A DNA stretch of 64,000 bases from Minisyncoccota bacterium (GTDB lineage: Bacteria > Patescibacteriota > Minisyncoccia > Phycocordibacterales > UBA9973), in NCBI GenBank assembly GCA_017991395.1, contig JAGOQQ010000006.1:66-64065 (forward strand), read 5' to 3'. Within the stretch, counting starts at the first letter, position 1; each line of letters opens with the position of its first letter. Positions 44,777 to 53,481 of the stretch are shown one piece after another. Below the pieces are notes generated by a model. It was not told where the DNA came from. It ran no database searches and saw nothing but the letters and a program-made list of their open reading frames with translations. Both the position numbers and the translations under genes were made by a program.

Positions 44777-45358
44777 TTAGTACTGATCAAATTGTGAAAG
44801 ATCAACATCACTTGCACTCGCAGTACCGCCAGTCACTTCATTCAATGTTACTTCCCATCCTGCTGACTGCGTAGCTGTCGTCTCAAACTCAAATGTCTCA
44901 TCGAATGCAGAGGCGTGAGCATTTCGATTGAATTTCTGCGTAGATGCATTCCAATCTGTACCTTGTGCAAATGCAAGCCAATATGTACCGTCATCTATAT
45001 TTTCCATCGTGTAAGTACTGTTAGCTTTGATATATACAGTAAGTACTGAGGCGCCGTCACGAATCAATTTTGCCACCGCGTCATAGCTAGTTCCATTACT
45101 AATTTGCAATTGTCCCTCACCTTGCAAGTACGCACTTTGTTTCTTCAAGACAGTACCAGTCGGAAGCGAATTTCCTGGCGTAAGATCTGGAACCTGTACT
45201 GTCTCTTGTTGTGATTGTGTTACTGTCGAAGGAGTTGGCAAAGGTGATGATATGTCGGTGTCTTCCATGGCACCCCAAATAATCAAACCAACAACAATTA
45301 GCCAGAACCACCAGCGAGCCACAAACCGTAGAACGTCTTTTATTGATAAGTTTTGCAT
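44777..45358 (-). CDS. Hypothetical exported/membrane-anchored protein (193 aa)
   Basis: N-terminal TM (WWFWLIVVGLIIWGA), then a S/T/Q-rich linker and a beta-rich domain; no homology. Confidence 0.45.
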   Translation of the reverse strand: MQNLSIKDVLRFVARWWFWLIVVGLIIWGAMEDTDISSPLPTPSTVTQSQQETVQVPDLTPGNSLPTGTVLKKQSAYLQGEGQLQISNGTSYDAVAKLIRDGASVLTVYIKANSTYTMENIDDGTYWLAFAQGTDWNASTQKFNRNAHASAFDETFEFETTATQSAGWEVTLNEVTGGTASASDVDLSQFDQY

Positions 45359-45364
45359 AAAATA

Positions 45365-45685
45365 TTAATCATTATTCTTATAATGTTTTGGCGACCTAAA
45401 AAACAGAACAGCCGCTACGATATCTACAACGGACCAAAGGAAATAACCAAAATATAGTGGATTGATTGGATTAAAAACAATAGCAATACCGATCATAATC
45501 AACATCCATCTCTTATTCTTTTCTTTATGATAAAGATACACAGAGAATACAGCCGATCCAAAAACCACAAGCTTCAACGCTTGGTAAAAGAAATAAGGCC
45601 AGATTGGAATTACAGCAACAAGCAAAACAATAGCCGCAATTTTTGAGAATAATATTCGATATTCGCTTTGCTCCTTAGTTACCAT
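45365..45685 (-). CDS. Small three-TM membrane protein (106 aa)
   Basis: Three hydrophobic helices; no homology. Confidence 0.4.
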   Translation of the reverse strand: MVTKEQSEYRILFSKIAAIVLLVAVIPIWPYFFYQALKLVVFGSAVFSVYLYHKEKNKRWMLIMIGIAIVFNPINPLYFGYFLWSVVDIVAAVLFFRSPKHYKNND

Positions 45686-45690
45686 ATAAT

Positions 45691-46770
45691 TTACGATCGT
45701 TCTAAATCACCAAATTGACTATAGTAGGCAATTTCCTCGATTGAAATCGAAGGAGTAAACTTTTTGATTGCATTAATCAACATTTTTTCATTGACCATTT
45801 GCTCATCCTCTAATACTGCCGCACGAGCCGCTTCGGTTACGATAAGCTCAATATCTGACCCTACGTAGTTATCAGACATCTTAGCGAGCTTTTCAAAATC
45901 AATTTTTTTATCATACGGTCGACCTGAAAGACAGATTTTAAACAAGTCTCTCCTTGCTTCTAGATCTGGTGGTCCAACAAATATACGCTTGTCCATTCGT
46001 CCAGATCGTAAGATTGCCGTGTCGATCATGTGAGGACGGTTTGTAGCTCCCACAACTAAGATTTTACTACTACCAGCATTGTTAAGCTGAAGGAGAAACT
46101 CGTTGATTTCTTCTTTCTTAATATCTGCGGATGAACTGAGTTCTTCTCGCTTTGGGATAAGACCCTCGATCTCATCAATAAAGACAATGGATGGTGCCTG
46201 CAGTCTTGCCATCTCAAAGACTTTGCCAATATTTCCAACGGCACCGTGCACATATGATGTGGCGACCGAAGATGGGTTCATTTCTATAAAACTGTACCCA
46301 AGTTGTTCAGCCAACTTTTTAACAATAAAGGTCTTTCCACATCCAGGAGGTCCGAACAACAAGATACCGTTAGGGATACCTAGCTTAAATTTCTTATACT
46401 TCTCTGGATTCATGAGTGGTTCAATTACATCATTCATAAGCATTGCTTTGAGGGGTCTCATTCCAGCAACACAATCAAAACCCCGCAAGACAGTAAGGTC
46501 ATCGATGATTGCGGTAATCTTGTCGTGAGAATGTTCGTCAGTTATAACACCAAGGTATTTTTTACCGCTTATTTCGAGATGTACGAGATCGTACTTTTGA
46601 CTACGATCAATAATCTCATCCTGTTGGATGTTGGTAAATAAATAGAGGAACTTATCATTTGAAAGCGAATACACCTCAGTGAAAAAAATCTTTTCTACAC
46701 GAGCAACCACACTCAATTTATCTTTGAGTTTGTAACCTGGGTGTAAAAGTGGTTTTGTTGTATTTGTCAT
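45691..46770 (-). CDS. Classic-clade AAA ATPase (single AAA domain, Cdc48/FtsH-ATPase-like) with ~150-aa N-terminal domain
   Basis: Walker A LLFGPPGCGKTF, Walker B IVFIDEIE, SRH ILVVGATNRPHMIDTAILRSGRMDKRIF. Start set at MTNTT so that the 46781-47650 gene is not overlapped. Confidence 0.8.
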   Translation of the reverse strand: MTNTTKPLLHPGYKLKDKLSVVARVEKIFFTEVYSLSNDKFLYLFTNIQQDEIIDRSQKYDLVHLEISGKKYLGVITDEHSHDKITAIIDDLTVLRGFDCVAGMRPLKAMLMNDVIEPLMNPEKYKKFKLGIPNGILLFGPPGCGKTFIVKKLAEQLGYSFIEMNPSSVATSYVHGAVGNIGKVFEMARLQAPSIVFIDEIEGLIPKREELSSSADIKKEEINEFLLQLNNAGSSKILVVGATNRPHMIDTAILRSGRMDKRIFVGPPDLEARRDLFKICLSGRPYDKKIDFEKLAKMSDNYVGSDIELIVTEAARAAVLEDEQMVNEKMLINAIKKFTPSISIEEIAYYSQFGDLERS

Positions 46771-46780
46771 ATATTTATAT

Positions 46781-47650
46781 TTAATAAGGTTCTGTACATA
46801 TGTATTTACCGCCCTCGACGTAACCGGCATATCTACTATTTCGACCCACATCCTTTTCGCATATTGCATTTATTGATGCTGTACTAACACACGAGTTTCC
46901 CTCAATGTCCCAGTCATATCCATATCCACAATCGCACACTCGTTTTCCATCTTCCGTAGTCGAATAAGCACCAGTTCCGTAACTATTCACACACGACTGA
47001 TTGAACGAGCTAAGGGAATAACATGCAGTTCGCCCGTTATCCCAATAAGAACCAACTTCACAATCACATATGTTTTTTCCTTCAGTAAGATCTACTTTAA
47101 GGAAACTTGTCCCTGGCCACTGTGAAGCACAGCTTTCATCACGTGCAACTGTAAATTTTACGCACTGTTGCGAGGTAGCACCTAAAGAATATCCAGCTGC
47201 ACAACCGCAAGAGTTCGTGGCACTATCATATGTTGCGTTGTATCCATTACGCTCCTGGCAAATTTCTAGAGGAGTTTGAACCGCGGGAGTTGTTTGTGTC
47301 TTTTCGGCTACTGGAACGTAGGAATTTGTATTTGTATCTGTCTCTACTTCGACATCTGTTTCTGAAGTATCAAAAATATCATTCAATGATTCGCTATTTG
47401 AGGGTGGAGGCAAAGTATTAGTCGTTGCTGTGCTATTACTATCTCCACTACTGGCGCTTACAGCAATAATAATTATTAAAACTCCAAGAGCAATCGCTCC
47501 TTGTGTCCATTTAACACCATCTGACATTGTTGACTCATCAACCGTCGATTTATGTGACGGTTGATGAGACCACTTCTTTTCTGATTTTTTAGGAGCACCT
47601 TCCCCAAGGAAGTCCAAATCAAGTTTTAGTTTTTTATCTTTATGCTCCAT
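46781..47650 (-). CDS. Single-pass membrane protein with extracytoplasmic Cys-rich repeats (C-x-C-x2-GY-x-W motif x3)
   Basis: N-terminal cytoplasmic K..L.LDFLGEG motif, TM (AIALGVLIIIIAV), S/T-rich linker, then repeats CGCAAGYSL.., CDCEVGSYWDNGRTAC, CDCGYGYDWDIEGNSC. Confidence 0.5.
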   Translation of the reverse strand: MEHKDKKLKLDLDFLGEGAPKKSEKKWSHQPSHKSTVDESTMSDGVKWTQGAIALGVLIIIIAVSASSGDSNSTATTNTLPPPSNSESLNDIFDTSETDVEVETDTNTNSYVPVAEKTQTTPAVQTPLEICQERNGYNATYDSATNSCGCAAGYSLGATSQQCVKFTVARDESCASQWPGTSFLKVDLTEGKNICDCEVGSYWDNGRTACYSLSSFNQSCVNSYGTGAYSTTEDGKRVCDCGYGYDWDIEGNSCVSTASINAICEKDVGRNSRYAGYVEGGKYICTEPY

Positions 47651-47655
47651 AGTTT

Positions 47656-48369
47656 TTATTCAAATAATCCACTGGCAATGACCAATACGTAGAAAATTGC
47701 AGGCGCAACAACGAACCAGAATATACCCCGACCATTCTGCACATGCATGACTTTTTTCACACCCTGATAACTAATATAAATTGAGTAGATGATTGCCAAG
47801 AGAGAAAGAATTCCAAAGATAACATCCACACTGGATGCTTCTGAATAATAGAAATAAAAATAATCACTGCCGTAAGCAATGTGATTAAGGAGTAGAGAAC
47901 CAATAGCTGTCACTGAAATTGGGAGAGAAGAAAAAGTATAGATATTTCGGGCTGTGTCGATAGTGCCAGATCCTTTTGACCATCCAACTCGAACATGATA
48001 GAACCAACCACCGATGTAATAAGCAATTGCTCCAGATAAGATACCTCCAAATAGAGCAATCGCCCAAACTTCACCCCAACTAGAGGATTCAGAGCTAGTA
48101 AATCGATCCGCTGCACTTCCAATACCGAGAATCCAAATCGCCAAAAGTAGGTATTTTGGATTAGACGTAACCAGATGTTTCTGTGCGAATTCGCTAAAGT
48201 TTGTAAAGCAGTCTTTAAAATACTCAAAGAATTTAACTCTATCTGAACGAGGAACAGGCATATGCTTTGGGGTTACGATTGGAATACTAGTTTGCTCCCC
48301 AGCTTTTTGTGGACTTTTGTCTAAGAAATCAAAATTTAAAGATTTTTTCTCGTTCATATATTTATCCAA
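47656..48369 (-). CDS. Polytopic membrane protein (5 predicted TMs) with N-terminal SLNFDFLDKS motif
   Basis: Hydrophobicity pattern; the N-terminal motif resembles that of the neighbouring 46781-47650 protein. Confidence 0.45.
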   Translation of the reverse strand: MDKYMNEKKSLNFDFLDKSPQKAGEQTSIPIVTPKHMPVPRSDRVKFFEYFKDCFTNFSEFAQKHLVTSNPKYLLLAIWILGIGSAADRFTSSESSSWGEVWAIALFGGILSGAIAYYIGGWFYHVRVGWSKGSGTIDTARNIYTFSSLPISVTAIGSLLLNHIAYGSDYFYFYYSEASSVDVIFGILSLLAIIYSIYISYQGVKKVMHVQNGRGIFWFVVAPAIFYVLVIASGLFE

Positions 48370-49957
48370 AGATTGCTCCTAAAACAATTATAATAATGAT
48401 CCGTACAACCCAGCCGATTACACTCGACCTTGTGTTCTCTGCTTTTTTATTTTTGATCACTTCACCAAGCCCTACGTAATAGTAGGAATTGAGAAGGATC
48501 TTAATTGCCATCTGCTCCCAGCGTTCATCGAATGCCTCATCGATTTTCTTCAACATCTTATTTTGAACCTCATCCACTTCACTTGCATTATCCGCAGTAA
48601 GAACCTTAACGTTGTTTTTAATCAAATCTAGCCAGGAGTCGATTACGCTCTTGTCTACATCATAAATTTCAATGTGTTCATACACAATCGATGCTGATTT
48701 TTGAAGTCCAGGTCGAGCCTCGTCGTATTTATCAGCTTCAAATAGCTTCTTCGCCTCAACGAACTCGACCACAGCATACATCGTAACAGCTTCCTTTTTC
48801 TTGCTATCCATCGCATTTTTAAATTCTGAATCTTTGCTCTCAGCCTTCTTTTGGTCTATCAGTGCTATCGCTTCTTGGAACTTCTTCTCATTCATGAGTT
48901 CCATGATTGGAGCTGTTGCACTCAAAAACTTTTTATTTTCTTCAAATTGGTCGAGATCCTGCTTAAGCTTGTTTTCCATCCCAGATGTACCAACAAACTG
49001 CATGGCAATCTTTAGAAGTTGCTCAGCTTTGGGCATATCGTCCAAATTATTGTGGATATCAAGAACAACAGAACGTATCGCACCCGCCGCTCGGTCACGT
49101 ATCGTTTTTGATTGACTGTCATCATATAGACCCAGATCGATCAGCTTGTTGCAACAATCTTGGATTTTTCCGATATGTTCTTTGATATCTGAAGCTTCTT
49201 GTGCATCAAGGTCACCATCCTCTGAAACCTTCATTGCCTCGAGCTTCTCGACTGCTTCTGTAATCTCCTGAAATATAGGAGCCATTACAACTTTCTCAGT
49301 CTTTTCTCCACGAAGATCAAATACTTTAGTAAATTCAGCTATGTAACTTCCATCCTCTCGAGAATGGCTAATCTCTGTATAAAGATCAGATAGAAATGAG
49401 GGCACCTGTTTATGAAAATCAGAGATGACTTCTTGATCGGTATCAAGCTCATCGTTATGTTTATATACTTTTGTGAAAGCTGTCCAGAATTTTGATGAGT
49501 TAGTAAGCTCATGCCAGATTTTTAAAGACTCTTTTAGATATCGCTTATTGTCTTCTTTGAAAAGTAGGATGCAATACAAAAGCGCTAGATTCTTTTTATA
49601 AAACATCGCCTTTGTAGTATCACTTTCGGAATTATGTTCCCAAACCCTTATAGCTCCTTCTGGATCTTTCTTACGAAGAATACCAACCGCCTGTTCGTCT
49701 ATGTCATCAGAAATATGAAACCAGAAGAAATAATCCTTAATCTGCTTCTTTGGTGAAGAGAGTTTTTGAACAGCGTCCTTTATCGCACCTTCCGTTCGAA
49801 AGTTATCGAACACGCACATATCTAGGTCGTATTCTGGAGTATCATCAATTTGGAGAAACTTTACAATTTCCTTTGCCCGTTTCTGCGTATCTCGTTGTGA
49901 GGCCGACGTGTCGAGACCGAGAATGTGATATGCATTATTTTTTAGTAGGTTTGACAT
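48362..49957 (-). CDS. Tail-anchored protein with degenerate J-like N-terminus (no HPD) and a large helical domain
   Basis: NAYHILGLDTSASQRDTQKRAKEI resembles J-domain helices I-II, but the HPD tripeptide is absent. C-terminal TM VVRIIIIIVLGAIFG; 531 aa. Confidence 0.45.
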   Translation of the reverse strand: MSNLLKNNAYHILGLDTSASQRDTQKRAKEIVKFLQIDDTPEYDLDMCVFDNFRTEGAIKDAVQKLSSPKKQIKDYFFWFHISDDIDEQAVGILRKKDPEGAIRVWEHNSESDTTKAMFYKKNLALLYCILLFKEDNKRYLKESLKIWHELTNSSKFWTAFTKVYKHNDELDTDQEVISDFHKQVPSFLSDLYTEISHSREDGSYIAEFTKVFDLRGEKTEKVVMAPIFQEITEAVEKLEAMKVSEDGDLDAQEASDIKEHIGKIQDCCNKLIDLGLYDDSQSKTIRDRAAGAIRSVVLDIHNNLDDMPKAEQLLKIAMQFVGTSGMENKLKQDLDQFEENKKFLSATAPIMELMNEKKFQEAIALIDQKKAESKDSEFKNAMDSKKKEAVTMYAVVEFVEAKKLFEADKYDEARPGLQKSASIVYEHIEIYDVDKSVIDSWLDLIKNNVKVLTADNASEVDEVQNKMLKKIDEAFDERWEQMAIKILLNSYYYVGLGEVIKNKKAENTRSSVIGWVVRIIIIIVLGAIFG

Positions 49958-49960
49958 AAA

Positions 49961-52474
49961 TTATTTAGTAATACCAGACATGTTACCTTGTATCATTTTC
50001 TGCTCGCTCGGTGGAAGAAGGAGCATCAGGTTGTGTACCGACCTTTTAAGTTCTTCAACATCGCCAAGCTCAAGGGCACGCTGTCCTTTATTCATGTAGT
50101 ATTCAGCCTCTTTCGGACTTGTCCAAGTATGACTTGTTTCCTTTATCTTATTGAACATATAGACCCATGATGCAGGATTTGAGAAAAGTGCCTTGTGATT
50201 GAGTTCTTGAAGCTGTTCCAATGAACGGCTGAGCATTACCTTATCCTCTTTACCAATAGCTAGATCAGCTTCATCCTTGATCACACGTAACTGGTCTTCG
50301 TACATTGTTTTTTCTGTCTGTTCACTCCATTCACTAATAATTCCTTCTACACTTTTTACCTTCTCTTCGTATTCTGATTTAAGCTGTGGAAACTCTTTCA
50401 TCTTTTCGAGACCATCAAGCCGGATTTTAAGATCTTTAAGTTGCTTATCAGCCTTTCGTTTTTCATCCTCATCCACTTTTGCAGTTGATAGACTTCCTTC
50501 AAGAGATTGCACTAGATTCTGAATTTTACCTTTCTCTTCTGGAGTACATGATTGCTCGACTTTTTTCGCGCGCTCGCTCTGCTCCTTGAGCTGTGTCTCC
50601 ATTTCTTCGACACTCAAATTTTCTGCATGGATTGTCGCACGTGCACTAAATGTGAGATCAATCGACGGAATAAACGCCTCTGCCCTAACTTCACGAGATT
50701 CGTTCACCTCGATTGTAAGTGCAATTTCTGTACCTTCTGGTAGATCATATGGGAGTTTTTCTCCTGTCACTTTGAGGTCACAAATGAATTGATTCTGATC
50801 TGGCACAGCTGATTCACCTTCACGGATTTTGATTGGGAGCGCGTTCTCCTTTTCACCCTTGGCAAGCGGTTTAAGTGTCTTATATGTATGTGTAGCTTTG
50901 AGGGGAAGAATACTATTTTTCTCAAAAATCACTTCAAACTCCTCGGTCATAGCAAAGCTAGCACCACTGAATCCACGCTTTACAACTCCCACTCCTATGG
51001 AGTGTGGTATCGGTGCACCAGATACTGAAAGACCGTGCGTTATAGAGAACGCCTCTGGTTCGGTTTTGATCGGGTTCCCTTCTGCGTCAAACATATAAAT
51101 CCAAAAGAGAGTAGTTTTGTTTTTATCGAGATTTACAGTTTCAATAAATTTACCGTTCTTGAGTTTAATTTTCTTTCCGCTAAAGAGTCCTCCTTCGCTC
51201 TGTATTTGAATAAAGTATTCTTCTTCTGTATCCTTAAGCTCTTCTACGACTCCGGTTATAGTCTCTTCGGTTTCAGAAGTTAGTGATTCATAGTTGAGAC
51301 GCAAGGTTTTAATTGAGGAATCAGTTAACTTTTTTGACTCAAGAAATTCCTTTGGAATCTTCTGACTCACGGCATAGATACATGCACCACGCGCAACAAC
51401 TGTTAATGGATCAGACGAAGTGTCTACTTCTATCTTCAAGTCTTTTTCCAAACGATCTTTTACGTACGGAATCATAGTAGGTCCGCCAACAAGTACAATC
51501 CTTGAGATGGATGATTGCTTCACTCCAGCCTCCTTAATGGTCTCCTTACTCAATTCAACAGTTTTATCGACAAACGGTTTAATCAGCTTTTCGAAATCTT
51601 TACGGGTAAAAGGTATAGTAAGATATATTTCCTTGCCATTGTCATCATCACCAATCTTTTCAACCTCGATAATTATTTCATCAGTTTGAGAAAGTGAAAT
51701 CTTTGCCGTCTCTGCATAGTATTTTAGCTTTGCAAACACACTACGATATTTTTTACTACTACGAGTAAAGTCTTCGATTTCATACTTTTCTAGAATAGCT
51801 GGTACGATGACCTTATCCACAACAGTCCAATCGAAATCTTTACCACCAAGAAAGTTGTCTCCATTATGTCCTAGTACAGAAAGTGCACCGTCTTTTGACG
51901 AAATGAGGGCCACATCAAACGTACCACCTCCTAAGTCATACACGAGCCAGTTTTCATTCTGAGAATTCATAAAACCGTAAGCTATCGCCGCCGCTATCGG
52001 TTCTTGTATCAAAACCACATGCTTGAAACCTGCGACATTACCCGCACGCTTAGTGGCTTCCGCCTGAAGGGTTGAGAAATATGCAGGTATTGTAATAACG
52101 ACACCAGTAGTTGGTGTGCCAGGATATTTCCGCAAAACATCCTCCTTGAGACTCTTTAAAATCTCCCCGGAGATTTCTTCTGGGGACATATCTTCGCCAA
52201 GGCGATCGAAATGAACAGTGTCCGAAGTTCCCATCAAGCGCTTTACCTCTGCCTTGTTATTTGAAAATTCTTCTTCCGATGCGTCCTTATAGAGACGCTC
52301 ATAAGATCGTTTACCAACGATCTTGTTTTTTGCTTTGTCTACGCCAAAAACCGATGGTGTGTACTCGTCATTAAAAATATTTTTAACAACCTCCACATGG
52401 TCTTTATTGTTTGCTGCAACTTCGGAATTTGTTGTTCCTAAGTCGATGCCAATCTGTATGTTTTGGTTGTTCAT
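49961..52474 (-). CDS. Atypical Hsp70-family ATPase (837 aa): canonical NBD, ~100-aa insertion, SBD-beta-like domain, extended helical/coiled-coil C-terminus
   Basis: Phosphate-1 IGIDLGTTNSEVA, phosphate-2 VYDLGGGTFDVALIS and adenosine IVLVGGPTMIPYV motifs. The SBD-beta-like segment (IPHSIGVGVV...ILPLKATHTYKT...EIALTIEVNESREVRAEAF) follows an insertion after ARGACIYAVSQ. There is no EEVD tail. Confidence 0.8.
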   Translation of the reverse strand: MNNQNIQIGIDLGTTNSEVAANNKDHVEVVKNIFNDEYTPSVFGVDKAKNKIVGKRSYERLYKDASEEEFSNNKAEVKRLMGTSDTVHFDRLGEDMSPEEISGEILKSLKEDVLRKYPGTPTTGVVITIPAYFSTLQAEATKRAGNVAGFKHVVLIQEPIAAAIAYGFMNSQNENWLVYDLGGGTFDVALISSKDGALSVLGHNGDNFLGGKDFDWTVVDKVIVPAILEKYEIEDFTRSSKKYRSVFAKLKYYAETAKISLSQTDEIIIEVEKIGDDDNGKEIYLTIPFTRKDFEKLIKPFVDKTVELSKETIKEAGVKQSSISRIVLVGGPTMIPYVKDRLEKDLKIEVDTSSDPLTVVARGACIYAVSQKIPKEFLESKKLTDSSIKTLRLNYESLTSETEETITGVVEELKDTEEEYFIQIQSEGGLFSGKKIKLKNGKFIETVNLDKNKTTLFWIYMFDAEGNPIKTEPEAFSITHGLSVSGAPIPHSIGVGVVKRGFSGASFAMTEEFEVIFEKNSILPLKATHTYKTLKPLAKGEKENALPIKIREGESAVPDQNQFICDLKVTGEKLPYDLPEGTEIALTIEVNESREVRAEAFIPSIDLTFSARATIHAENLSVEEMETQLKEQSERAKKVEQSCTPEEKGKIQNLVQSLEGSLSTAKVDEDEKRKADKQLKDLKIRLDGLEKMKEFPQLKSEYEEKVKSVEGIISEWSEQTEKTMYEDQLRVIKDEADLAIGKEDKVMLSRSLEQLQELNHKALFSNPASWVYMFNKIKETSHTWTSPKEAEYYMNKGQRALELGDVEELKRSVHNLMLLLPPSEQKMIQGNMSGITK

Positions 52475-52486
52475 AAAATATATTTC

Positions 52487-53008
52487 TTAGTTACTTAATA
52501 ATATAATCTTGGCCTTTTTTACGACCTGACCTTTAACCAAAATCGTTGGCTCAACAGTTTCCTTTACCATAGGCATTGTCACAGCAGTGTCTTTCTCCAC
52601 CGAGAGAACATCAAGATTCAATCCGTCATTGAATTTCTGATTGGTATAATCAACAATCTCAATGTCATAATTAGAGATATACCGTCTAAACTTGAGAACG
52701 GAATTCTCTAGACCTTTTCGTTGGTTTTCTTGAAGACTGTCGGCAATTTTTAATAATCGTTGTTCAACGCGCCATACTTCTGTTGCGAGTTCAACAAGCT
52801 CAGTAACACTTGTTGAAAGATTTATAGACTTGGGAGCTACTGCATATTTAATTTCATCGCTAATCTTTTTGTAAAGTTCATCAAATTTATCTGAACCTTC
52901 TGTACTCTTACCTGATTTACGGCTAAGTACATAGAGAAATGCAAAAAGAAAAAAGATCGCAATTACGAGGACGAGTATAAATATTGGATTTAAAAATATG
53001 GTATTCAT
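52487..53008 (-). CDS. Membrane-anchored GrpE-like protein
   Basis: N-terminal TM (ILVLVIAIFFLFAFLYVL), helical segment ELATEVWRVEQRLLKIADSLQEN (cf. GrpE ...LLPVIDSLERAL) and a C-terminal beta-domain-like DIEIVDYTNQKFNDGLNLDVLSVE...VKGQVVKKAKIIL. Weaker than a canonical GrpE match. Confidence 0.45.
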   Translation of the reverse strand: MNTIFLNPIFILVLVIAIFFLFAFLYVLSRKSGKSTEGSDKFDELYKKISDEIKYAVAPKSINLSTSVTELVELATEVWRVEQRLLKIADSLQENQRKGLENSVLKFRRYISNYDIEIVDYTNQKFNDGLNLDVLSVEKDTAVTMPMVKETVEPTILVKGQVVKKAKIILLSN

Positions 53009-53009
53009 T

Positions 53010-53282
53010 TTATTTCATCAACTCGTCAGTAGGAACATCTACCACTTTAGCTAATTTAGCAATGGTTGCGAGAGTGGTATTTGTCTTACCATTCTCAATA
53101 TTACTTATGAAGCTTCGACTAACCTCAAGTTCCCGAGCAATATCACCCTGAGAGATATTCTTTGCTATTCGGATATGCTTAAGGTTATTACCTAATTTTT
53201 CTGAATCACTTTTCATGATCTCACTATACGCTCTGTTATAGTTTAACACAACAGTATCGTATAGTGTACTACTGTCTATCAA
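53010..53282 (-). CDS. XRE-family helix-turn-helix transcriptional regulator
   Basis: HTH_XRE pattern LKHIRIAKNISQGDIARELEVSRSFISNIENGK; first gene of the co-directional block. Confidence 0.8.
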   Translation of the reverse strand: MIDSSTLYDTVVLNYNRAYSEIMKSDSEKLGNNLKHIRIAKNISQGDIARELEVSRSFISNIENGKTNTTLATIAKLAKVVDVPTDELMK

Positions 53283-53388: not shown

Positions 53389-53417
53389 TCTTTGAGCTAG
53401 CTCAACTTTGCTGGGGT
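53389..53417. repeat. Block TCTTTGAGCTAG..TTTGCTGGGGT at the tRNA-Gln 3' end (partner of 44628-44656)
   Basis: See 44596-44656; TTGCTGGGGT forms the acceptor 3' strand plus flank of tRNA-Gln. Confidence 0.55.
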
Positions 53418-53481
53418 ACATGGATTCGAACCACGATTAAAGGCTTCAAAGGCCTCTGTCCTACCATTAGACGATACCCCA
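53411..53481 (-). tRNA. tRNA-Gln (anticodon TTG)
   Basis: The reverse complement gives TGGGGTATCGTCTAATGGTAGGACAGAGGCCTTTGAAGCCTTTAATCGTGGTTCGAATCCATGTACCCCAG. U1-A72 acceptor pair, anticodon loop CTTTGAA. Closely resembles E. coli tRNA-Gln. CCA is not encoded. Confidence 0.85.

Follow-up and report, generated by a model that had tools for sequence, protein, structure and literature searches.

Can a J-type protein whose HPD tripeptide has been replaced still serve an Hsp70 as its co-chaperone? The question is raised by a gene in a stretch of 64,000 nucleotides (hereafter the window; position 1 is its first letter) taken from contig JAGOQQ010000006.1 (positions 66 to 64,065) of the Minisyncoccota bacterium assembly GCA_017991395.1. 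There, an ATG-start open reading frame (ORF) of 531 amino acids (aa) on the minus strand (48362..49957, stop codon included) lies directly downstream of the gene for an Hsp70, and an initial annotation of the window had described its product as a tail-anchored J-like protein without HPD. The HPD tripeptide is regarded as a defining, indispensable feature of the J-domain. As judged from sequence, the protein is probably the J-type co-chaperone dedicated to a divergent, self-contained Hsp70 system in which the interface between J-domain and Hsp70 has co-evolved to an HPD-independent form. What is new here is a large prokaryotic family of HPD-less J-domains, the reciprocal loss of the HPD receptor in its dedicated Hsp70, and a conserved GrpE-Hsp70-J-AAA+ cassette.

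The three peptide strings quoted in the initial annotation were all located in the 531-aa ORF, where NAYHILGLDTSASQRDTQKRAKEIVKFL occupies residues 9-35, QIDDTPEYD residues 36-44 and SVIGWVVRIIIIIVLGAIFG residues 512-531, the extreme C-terminus. Homologues were numerous: more than 476 came from a database clustered at 90%, and an exhaustive profile search at E ≤ 1e-3 gave 1,889 representatives (50% identity), which argues that the ORF is a real gene and not a chance reading frame; database entries name them 'hypothetical' or 'TPR repeat protein' and hold no precomputed Pfam domains for them. The gene of the window is about 98% identical to a copy in a Patescibacteria metagenome-assembled genome (MAG). 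The AlphaFold2 (AF2) model of the full-length protein, built from a 26-sequence alignment, was all-helical with a mean predicted local distance difference test score (pLDDT) of 88.7. Three parts were distinguished: an N-terminal J fold of about 80 residues, which is the best-conserved section of the protein, a TPR-like helical body of about 420 residues, and a C-terminal transmembrane (TM) tail.

Searched at full length, whether alone or as a profile of 26 sequences, the protein gave no J-domain match in Pfam, NCBIfam, PADLOC, PHROGs or the PDB; the J-domain signal arose only when the N-terminal 84 residues were searched alone. A profile made from an 84-column alignment of 46 diverse family N-termini was compared with all PDB sequences (hmmsearch) and returned 25 matches at E ≤ 10, about 20 of them J-domains, including those of DNAJC5 (the best, E = 0.02), DNAJB8, E. 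coli and Thermus DnaJ, DNAJA3, ERdj5, Sec63 and DNAJB6. The J-domain matches were aligned with the profile from helix I through helix II, in keeping with the helix I/II pattern noted in the initial annotation. When the 46 N-termini were scanned one by one, PF00226 (DnaJ) matched 19 (best E = 8.6e-4, all below the curated cut-off) and no other Pfam family matched more than two, and the reversed-sequence controls of the same N-termini gave 0/46 DnaJ matches in Pfam and one unrelated match in the PDB. Profile similarity to J-domains, on which the initial annotation had made its proposal depend, was thus found at the level of the family, and not in reversed sequences. The copy in the window is not detected by PF00226 and lies below single-sequence detection; its assignment is supported by the family profile and the predicted structure.

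The isolated N-terminal domain was modelled by AF2 with a pLDDT of 80, and in a Foldseek search of this model against the PDB the top 23 matches were all J-domains (probability up to 1.0, TM-scores of 0.45-0.67), the weak E-values being attributable to the shortness of the domain. Helices were assigned to residues 9-13 (I), 21-36 (II), 56-67 (III) and 69-80 (IV), with a loop at 37-55 and an invariant FFWF at the end, and the pattern was identical in the full-length and the isolated models. The four-helix J fold with its helix II-loop-helix III hairpin is present in the models, and by profile and predicted structure the N-terminus is a genuine, highly divergent J-domain homologue.

In the HMMER alignments, which run without gaps from helix I through the whole of helix II, H33-P34-D35 of DnaJ falls on Q36-I37-D38, in agreement with where helix II stops in the models. 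Residue frequencies were taken over 154 non-redundant family members: position 36 is K in 73 and Q in 39, position 37 is I in 138, and position 38 is D in 87, G in 36 and E in 17, giving a family consensus of K/Q-I-D/G at the HPD-equivalent site. HPD itself occurs in two members and HP[DE] in four, located at alignment positions 40-42 and not 36-38, so that the lack of HPD reported for the window copy extends to nearly the whole family. In place of the HPD region stands a 19-residue loop (QIDDTPEYDLDMCVFDNFR in the window copy). The survey of this region in orthologues that the initial annotation had called for revealed invariants of the loop's own (R54 in 153, D46 in 148, I37 in 138, P41 in 132 and Y43 in 130 of the 154), and the near-invariant set of the family comprises N8, L13-G14-L15, R27, I37, P41, Y43, D46, R54 and F77-F78-W79. 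Judged by these frequencies, the loop is under strong purifying selection. With a recognisable J-domain in which HPD is non-conservatively replaced, the family falls within the definition of type IV or pseudo-J-domain proteins (pseudo-JDPs; PMC13254874).

The partner Hsp70 consists of a nucleotide-binding domain (NBD; residues 8-367), an insert of about 140 residues (370-512; window 50939-51367, minus strand), the beta part of a substrate-binding domain (SBD-beta; about 513-640), a long helical lid and an SGIT-x tail. The insert stands in place of the short interdomain linker, which in DnaK is VLLLD. It is conserved and apparently beta-rich, and had no sequence match in Pfam or the PDB. The NBD aligned with DnaK at E~1e-58 (PDB), and the SBD was recognised by profile at E = 0.004 against DnaK/Hsc70 SBDs (PDB) and by PF00012 at E = 3.5e-6 on the C-terminal fragment. 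The C-terminus reads [SA]-G-I-[TSI]-x in all 22 bacterial and archaeal members compared (SGITK in the window, 49964-49978, minus strand). The EEVD tail of Hsp70s docks TPR co-chaperones, and by analogy the SGIT-x tail might be a ligand of either the J-like protein, through its TPR-like body, or the N-domain of the AAA+ protein.

For the residue comparison, the 22 family members were aligned with E. coli DnaK and HscC, and the residues compared are given in DnaK numbering. The catalytic and nucleotide-binding residues D8, T11, N13, K70, R71, E171, D194, G197, G198, T199 and D201 were kept in 22/22 and T12 in 21/22 (S in L049), and P143, K414, P419 and I438 were kept in 21-22. In DnaK, R167 and Q378 are hydrogen-bonded by D35 of DnaJ, linker L391 is contacted by H33 and P419 by P34, D481 forms a clamp on R167/I168, and D148 passes the substrate signal on (PMC8215388). 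In the present family R167 is replaced by V or I and Q378 by F or Y in all 22 members, D481 by S in 21, D148 by V, T or I in 22, R151 by A or S in 19 (K, C or N in the other three), and N170 by Q and T173 by I in 22. The Hsp70, already called atypical in the initial annotation, is confirmed as such by the loss of R167 and Q378 throughout and by the insert. By this comparison it has lost the receptor for the HPD aspartate together with part of the allosteric relay, and is predicted to stay a competent ATPase with an SBD. The replacement residues V167, Q170, I173 and F/Y378 are themselves invariant, which suggests a new constrained surface and not decay. The sporadic HP[DE] variants of the J-like protein (L024, L044, L043) were considered as relict functional motifs and rejected, since the partner Hsp70 in these loci has V or A at position 167.

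Gene context was surveyed in 48 loci from a genome scan, in which six-frame ORFs were searched with the window proteins. The Hsp70 gene (about 837 aa) lies directly upstream of the J-like gene in 46 of the 48, and both exceptions begin at a contig end. A GrpE-like gene of about 175 aa is found upstream of the Hsp70 in 40 loci, and an AAA+ gene of about 359 aa downstream of the J-like gene in 41, five of the seven exceptions being cut by contig ends. GrpE homology is indicated by PF01025, which matched 20/23 members of the ~175-aa family (best E = 2.8e-9), and the bacterial members have an N-terminal TM segment with a hydropathy of 2-3.4. A competent NBD, an SBD and a GrpE-family factor are thus encoded together with the J-like protein. 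No second, HPD-bearing J-domain was detected: PF00226 was absent from the nine cassette ORFs scanned, E. coli DnaJ matched no ORF of the window, and neither a canonical DnaK nor a canonical DnaJ was found within the 64 kb. Many Patescibacteria lineages carry the cassette, as do Woesearchaeota (L035, L038), Thaumarchaeota/Nitrosopumilaceae (L036, L043, L047) and MAGs with other labels. It is apparently undescribed; no description was found in the full-text literature, of which coverage was incomplete, so that an earlier one is possible. In three loci (L025, L045, L047) the Hsp70 and/or J-like genes are split or truncated, as decayed cassettes or through assembly frameshifts; one of these is in a Nitrosopumilus MAG.

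The body of the J-like protein was all-helical in the AF2 model from about residue 84 to about 505 (DSSP), in line with the helical domain of about 450 aa proposed initially, and is made of helical repeats. TPR_2 matched it weakly in 5 of 26 members, and Foldseek on the full-length model gave only non-specific TPR or solenoid matches (TM-score < 0.2), the weak structural matches including the TPR domains of p58IPK and Tom70/71. In some longer relatives canonical TPR repeats are added at either end. The single C-terminal TM helix predicted in the initial annotation is well founded: Kyte-Doolittle hydropathy averages 2.64 over the last 19 residues, which form the sole TM-grade segment of the protein. 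They are preceded by the basic stretch KNKKAENTR, and from these basic residues a cytoplasmic orientation is predicted, with the bulk of the protein in the cytoplasm. In the archaeal loci L035, L036, L038 and L043 the J-like protein has no C-terminal TM segment and the GrpE-like protein no N-terminal one; membrane tethering thus appears specific to the bacterial (Candidate Phyla Radiation, CPR) versions of the cassette.

Two variant architectures were seen in the family. Some members (P0152, P0156, P0162, P0205) carry an N-terminal Cys-x2-Cys zinc-ribbon-like extension ahead of the J-like domain. In a subfamily of 485-490 aa (about 487 aa; e.g. P0082, P0088, P0104) the last ~150 residues are swapped for a different module with a conserved YGDT..YFV..IP..PI.RW followed by a TM segment.

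The working model that follows is drawn from domain content and residue conservation. One operon would supply an HTH regulator, a TM-anchored GrpE-like exchange factor, the atypical Hsp70, the J-like protein and a classical AAA+ ATPase. The J-like domain would dock on its own Hsp70 and not on a canonical DnaK, where it may either speed ATP hydrolysis through new contacts or only tether and regulate. Together with the membrane-anchored GrpE-like factor, the J-like protein would keep the Hsp70 cycle at the cytoplasmic side of the membrane; its helical body may select clients or bind the SGIT tail of the Hsp70, and the AAA+ unfoldase may share these clients, for instance when membrane proteins are extracted, remodelled or subjected to quality control. 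More tentatively, and as a conjecture that we hold to be doubtful in its full extent, the cassette might constitute an undescribed prokaryotic Hsp70 machine beside DnaK, HscA and HscC, with a J-domain that drives or gates its Hsp70 across an HPD-independent, co-evolved hydrophobic interface, a membrane-tethered cycle and a PAN/Cdc48-like unfoldase, which pulls, extracts or remodels membrane-associated proteins in ultra-small episymbiotic bacteria and archaea. Such a membrane-tethered machine would be analogous to the mitochondrial presequence translocase-associated motor (PAM) or to extraction of the endoplasmic-reticulum-associated degradation (ERAD) type.

Several points weigh against an HPD-independent co-chaperone. 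The acidic patch of the NBD that receives helix II of the J-domain (E206, D208, E209, D211, E217) is missing family-wide, so that the whole canonical docking surface is gone and binding may take place elsewhere or be absent. Natural HPD substitutions that have been tested abolish ATPase stimulation, HPE of DjlB/DjlC being the sole tolerated variant (PMC13254874). The J-domain E-values are marginal when taken singly (best 0.02 in the PDB and 8.6e-4 in Pfam), and PF00226 misses the window copy. The archaeal co-chaperones have no TM anchors, which implies that tethering is not essential to the core mechanism. As read from domain content, the system could control the quality of membrane proteins or extract them, drive translocation as a motor, or serve in conflict.

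The first two of these points are shared with the strongest alternative, in which the protein is a J relic of the Pam16 kind that does not stimulate the ATPase and acts as a membrane scaffold, adaptor or negative regulator; the TPR-like body would hold the Hsp70 or its clients, and hydrolysis would be triggered by substrate, by the AAA+ protein or by an unlinked canonical J-protein. We consider this possible, and less than probable. It is favoured by the lack of HPD in the J-like family together with the missing R167/Q378 receptor and acidic patch of the Hsp70, by the non-stimulatory behaviour of type IV JDPs such as Pam16 (PMC13254874), and by the invariant Hsp70 tail and TPR-like body, which offer docking independent of the J-domain. 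The likeness extends further: Pam16/Tim16 and DNAJB13 have a recognisable J fold with HPD non-conservatively replaced, and Pam16 belongs to a membrane-bound Hsp70 motor with the GrpE homologue Mge1 (PMC13254874). However, Pam16 forms a heterodimer with the genuine J-protein Pam18, whereas no HPD-bearing J-protein is linked to the J-like gene in cassette or window, which argues against a pair of the Pam16/Pam18 type. The mitochondrial Hsp70 served by Pam16 is canonical, whereas the Hsp70 considered here has no HPD receptor, and the invariance of its replacement residues suggests a constrained interface, not decay. Relative to Pam16 and DNAJB13 the J-like family is prokaryotic and tail-anchored, with a much longer loop between helices II and III; this loop is its most strongly conserved part and has invariants of its own, which points to a selected function and not to a relic. 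A precedent for HPD-independent action is a designed J-domain analogue lacking the tripeptide, which is reported to stimulate Hsc70 (PMC13254874).

A second alternative, which we regard as unlikely and which can be reconciled with the molecular role that we propose for the J-like protein, is that the HTH-GrpE-Hsp70-J-like-AAA+ row is a horizontally moving anti-virus or inter-cell conflict system, with the chaperones sensing or regulating and the AAA+ or membrane proteins as effectors. Signs of mobility are consistent with it. The cassette is patchily distributed, is found in more than one domain and keeps its gene order; in L053 the whole cassette, about 80% identical in nucleotides over a 4.6-kb core, stands between flanks unrelated to those of the window (UvrD helicase, Cas4/DUF2779 nuclease, trypsin-like peptidase); a tRNA-Gln(ttg) gene (53410-53481, minus strand) lies directly upstream of the HTH gene of the operon, and in L052 (5551-6870) a large serine recombinase occupies the same place directly upstream of the cassette. 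The unrelated flanks, the tRNA-Gln gene, the recombinase and the cross-domain spread suggest horizontal movement, perhaps of the cassette as one unit. In two otherwise different contexts, L052 4543-5406 and L053 12376-13659, a trypsin-like serine peptidase (PF13365) was noted near the cassette, by coincidence or as an accessory protease.

The XRE-type HTH regulator at the operon head and the score of the AAA+ protein against PADLOC IetA models (E = 8e-35) also fit a conflict system, and Hsp70-GrpE-DnaJ modules occur in GTPase-centred conflict systems (PMC7159879). These modules, associated with GAP1-N2 GTPases, are the nearest published association, with an architecture different from that of the cassette. 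The IetA/TRIP13 matches, however, reflect generic AAA similarity; PAN, CDC48 and FtsH models score higher, and no PADLOC model (PADLOC-DB v2) matched the Hsp70, the J-like or the GrpE-like protein. The core holds no nuclease or toxin-type effector, and the flanking genes are mostly of the housekeeping kind. PHROGs gave no match for the J-like, GrpE-like, Yip1 and DUF6804 proteins, and of 2.9 million IMG/VR contigs one alone carried the J-like gene, as part of the cassette and between flanks of cellular-type genes; a viral origin of the cassette is not supported.

A tail-anchored bacterial J-like protein beside an atypical Hsp70 had been called unusual in the initial annotation. That statement did not hold, as E. 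coli DjlB/DjlC (YbeS/YbeV) with HscC offer a precedent (PMC8215388): an N-terminal J-type domain, a long non-DnaJ middle part, a C-terminal tail anchor and an adjacent non-DnaK Hsp70 are common to both systems, and DjlC has been shown experimentally to be membrane-inserted and to stimulate HscC (PMC8215388). The unusual features lie instead in the missing HPD, in the Hsp70 changes that match it and in the conservation of a cassette of four genes. It is very improbable that the window's protein is a divergent orthologue of the enterobacterial system. The shared architecture speaks for orthology, as do the departure of both from HPD (HPE in DjlB/DjlC) and the register in which hhalign places the N-terminus on the J-domain of DjlB. 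None of the hhalign values was significant (E = 0.25 for DjlC, 0.068 for DjlB, and 0.09 for a 30-sequence DjlB/C profile, J region only), and PF27158, the DjlB/C family, matched 0/26 J-like members at E ≤ 10. Of the HPD triad DjlB/DjlC still have H and P, whereas the J-like family has replaced it entirely and has no HPE at the site. HscC keeps R167, Q378, D148, R151, N170 and T173 and a normal short linker, in contrast to V/I167, F/Y378 and the ~140-aa insert of the Hsp70 studied here; its locus has no dedicated GrpE or AAA+ gene; and DjlB/C are restricted to Enterobacterales, the J-like family being found in CPR, DPANN and Thaumarchaeota. Orthology was rejected, as no homology was detectable beyond the J region, PF27158 was absent and the partner is not of the HscC type. 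In E. coli K-12 (L001 676000-690000) a DUF1266 gene (ybeR, ybeU) precedes each of djlB and djlC, and the Sel1/TPR-like genes ybeQ and ybeT are nearby. TPR-like modules are thus separate genes in the HscC system, whereas in the J-like family the TPR-like body is fused to the J-like domain.

Least probable of all is a chance resemblance, in which the N-terminus would be some generic bundle of helices with no relation to J-domains: the negative full-length searches (Pfam, NCBIfam, PDB) and the marginal E-values of single matches would agree with it, but J-domains in the correct register dominate three independent tests (PDB profile, Foldseek, Pfam), the reversed-sequence controls are clean, and the linkage of the J-like gene with genes for an Hsp70 and a GrpE homologue is strict.

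Further systems resemble the proposed HPD-independent co-chaperone in part. In DNAJC3/p58IPK and DNAJC7 a J-type domain is likewise combined with TPR-like helical repeats, and in p58IPK the order of the domains is reversed relative to the J-like protein. Like eukaryotic Hsp70s, whose EEVD tail is bound by TPR co-chaperones, the partner Hsp70 has an invariant motif at its extreme C-terminus; here, however, the tail is SGIT-x and not EEVD, the body matches TPR models weakly, and binding between tail and body is hypothetical. The parts list equals that of DnaK-DnaJ-GrpE with ClpB (Hsp70 NBD and SBD, J-type and GrpE-type co-chaperones, AAA+ unfoldase). It differs in that both co-chaperones of the window's cassette are membrane-anchored, the Hsp70 has the insert between NBD and SBD and no HPD receptor, and the AAA+ protein, unlike ClpB/Hsp100, is a single-ring member of the classical clade (PAN/CDC48/FtsH-like, with the second region of homology, SRH).

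A large census of JDPs left out sequences without HPD (PMC10410713), and a 2026 review calls 'enigmatic' whether HPD-less J-domains are evolutionary accidents or positively selected (PMC13254874). The J-like family is a natural test case, being large (1,889 representatives at 50% identity) and having a strongly conserved replacement loop and strict linkage to a dedicated Hsp70; in the latter precisely those residues are gone by which the HPD aspartate is read, while a competent ATPase site and the SBD are kept. With four purifiable proteins, the choice between accident and selection becomes directly testable. In addition, next to nothing is known of the cell biology of Patescibacteria and DPANN, and in these organisms the cassette may represent a hitherto unrecognised module for proteostasis or transport close to the membrane.

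Table 1. Features of the J-like gene and its operon in the window, with the evidence for each.
Feature	Position	Strand	Evidence
J-like co-chaperone ORF, 531 aa	48362..49957	-	ORF; large conserved family; AF2 pLDDT 88.7
N-terminal J-domain fold (predicted), residues 1-82	49712..49957	-	AF2; PDB profile matches; PF00226; reversed controls; Foldseek
HPD-equivalent region and extended loop, residues 36-54, QIDDTPEYDLDMCVFDNFR	49796..49852	-	HMMER alignments to DNAJC5, DNAJB8, DnaJ; residue frequencies in 154 members
All-helical TPR-like body, residues ~84-505	48443..49708	-	DSSP of AF2 model
C-terminal TM tail anchor, residues 512-531	48365..48424	-	Hydropathy; AF2 terminal helix of low pLDDT
Atypical Hsp70, 837 aa	49961..52474	-	PF00012 E=1e-81; 3-nt spacer to J-like gene
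GrpE homologue, 173 aa, N-terminal TM	52487..53008	-	PF01025; window copy E=0.037
XRE-type HTH regulator heading operon	53010..53282	-	PF01381 E=9e-16
Yip1-domain membrane protein, variable accessory	47656..48369	-	PF04893 E=1.2e-12
Cys-rich protein, one TM segment, variable accessory	46781..47650	-	ORF; no significant family match
Classical-clade AAA+ ATPase, likely 359 aa from Met34 of 392-aa ORF	45691..46770 (longest ORF to 46869)	-	PF00004 E=2e-33
DUF6804 small membrane protein	45365..45685	-	PF20619 E=1.9e-19
193-aa protein	44777..45358	-	ORF

The genes for the HTH_3, GrpE-like, Hsp70, J-like, Yip1, Cys-rich, AAA+, DUF6804 and 193-aa proteins form one co-directional row on the minus strand, with spacers of 1, 12 and 3 nt among the first four. 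An HTH homologue stands directly upstream of the cassette in at least nine loci. The Yip1, Cys-rich and DUF6804 genes encode variable small membrane proteins around the AAA+ gene: Yip1 was found only in the clade of the window and a few other loci, homologues of the Cys-rich protein are patchy across loci, and DUF6804 recurs in many loci, often downstream of the AAA+ gene. The best NCBIfam matches of the AAA+ protein were PAN, CDC48 and FtsH-type models, and it has intact Walker A (GPPGCGKT) and Walker B (IVFIDE) motifs as well as intact SRH arginine fingers. Its 392-aa ORF overlaps the upstream Cys-rich gene by 89 nt; since homologues are about 359 aa long, the true start is likely to be Met34 at 46770, 10 nt past the upstream stop codon. 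The pore-loop region of the AAA+ protein reads SYVHG, as against the usual aromatic-hydrophobic-Gly.

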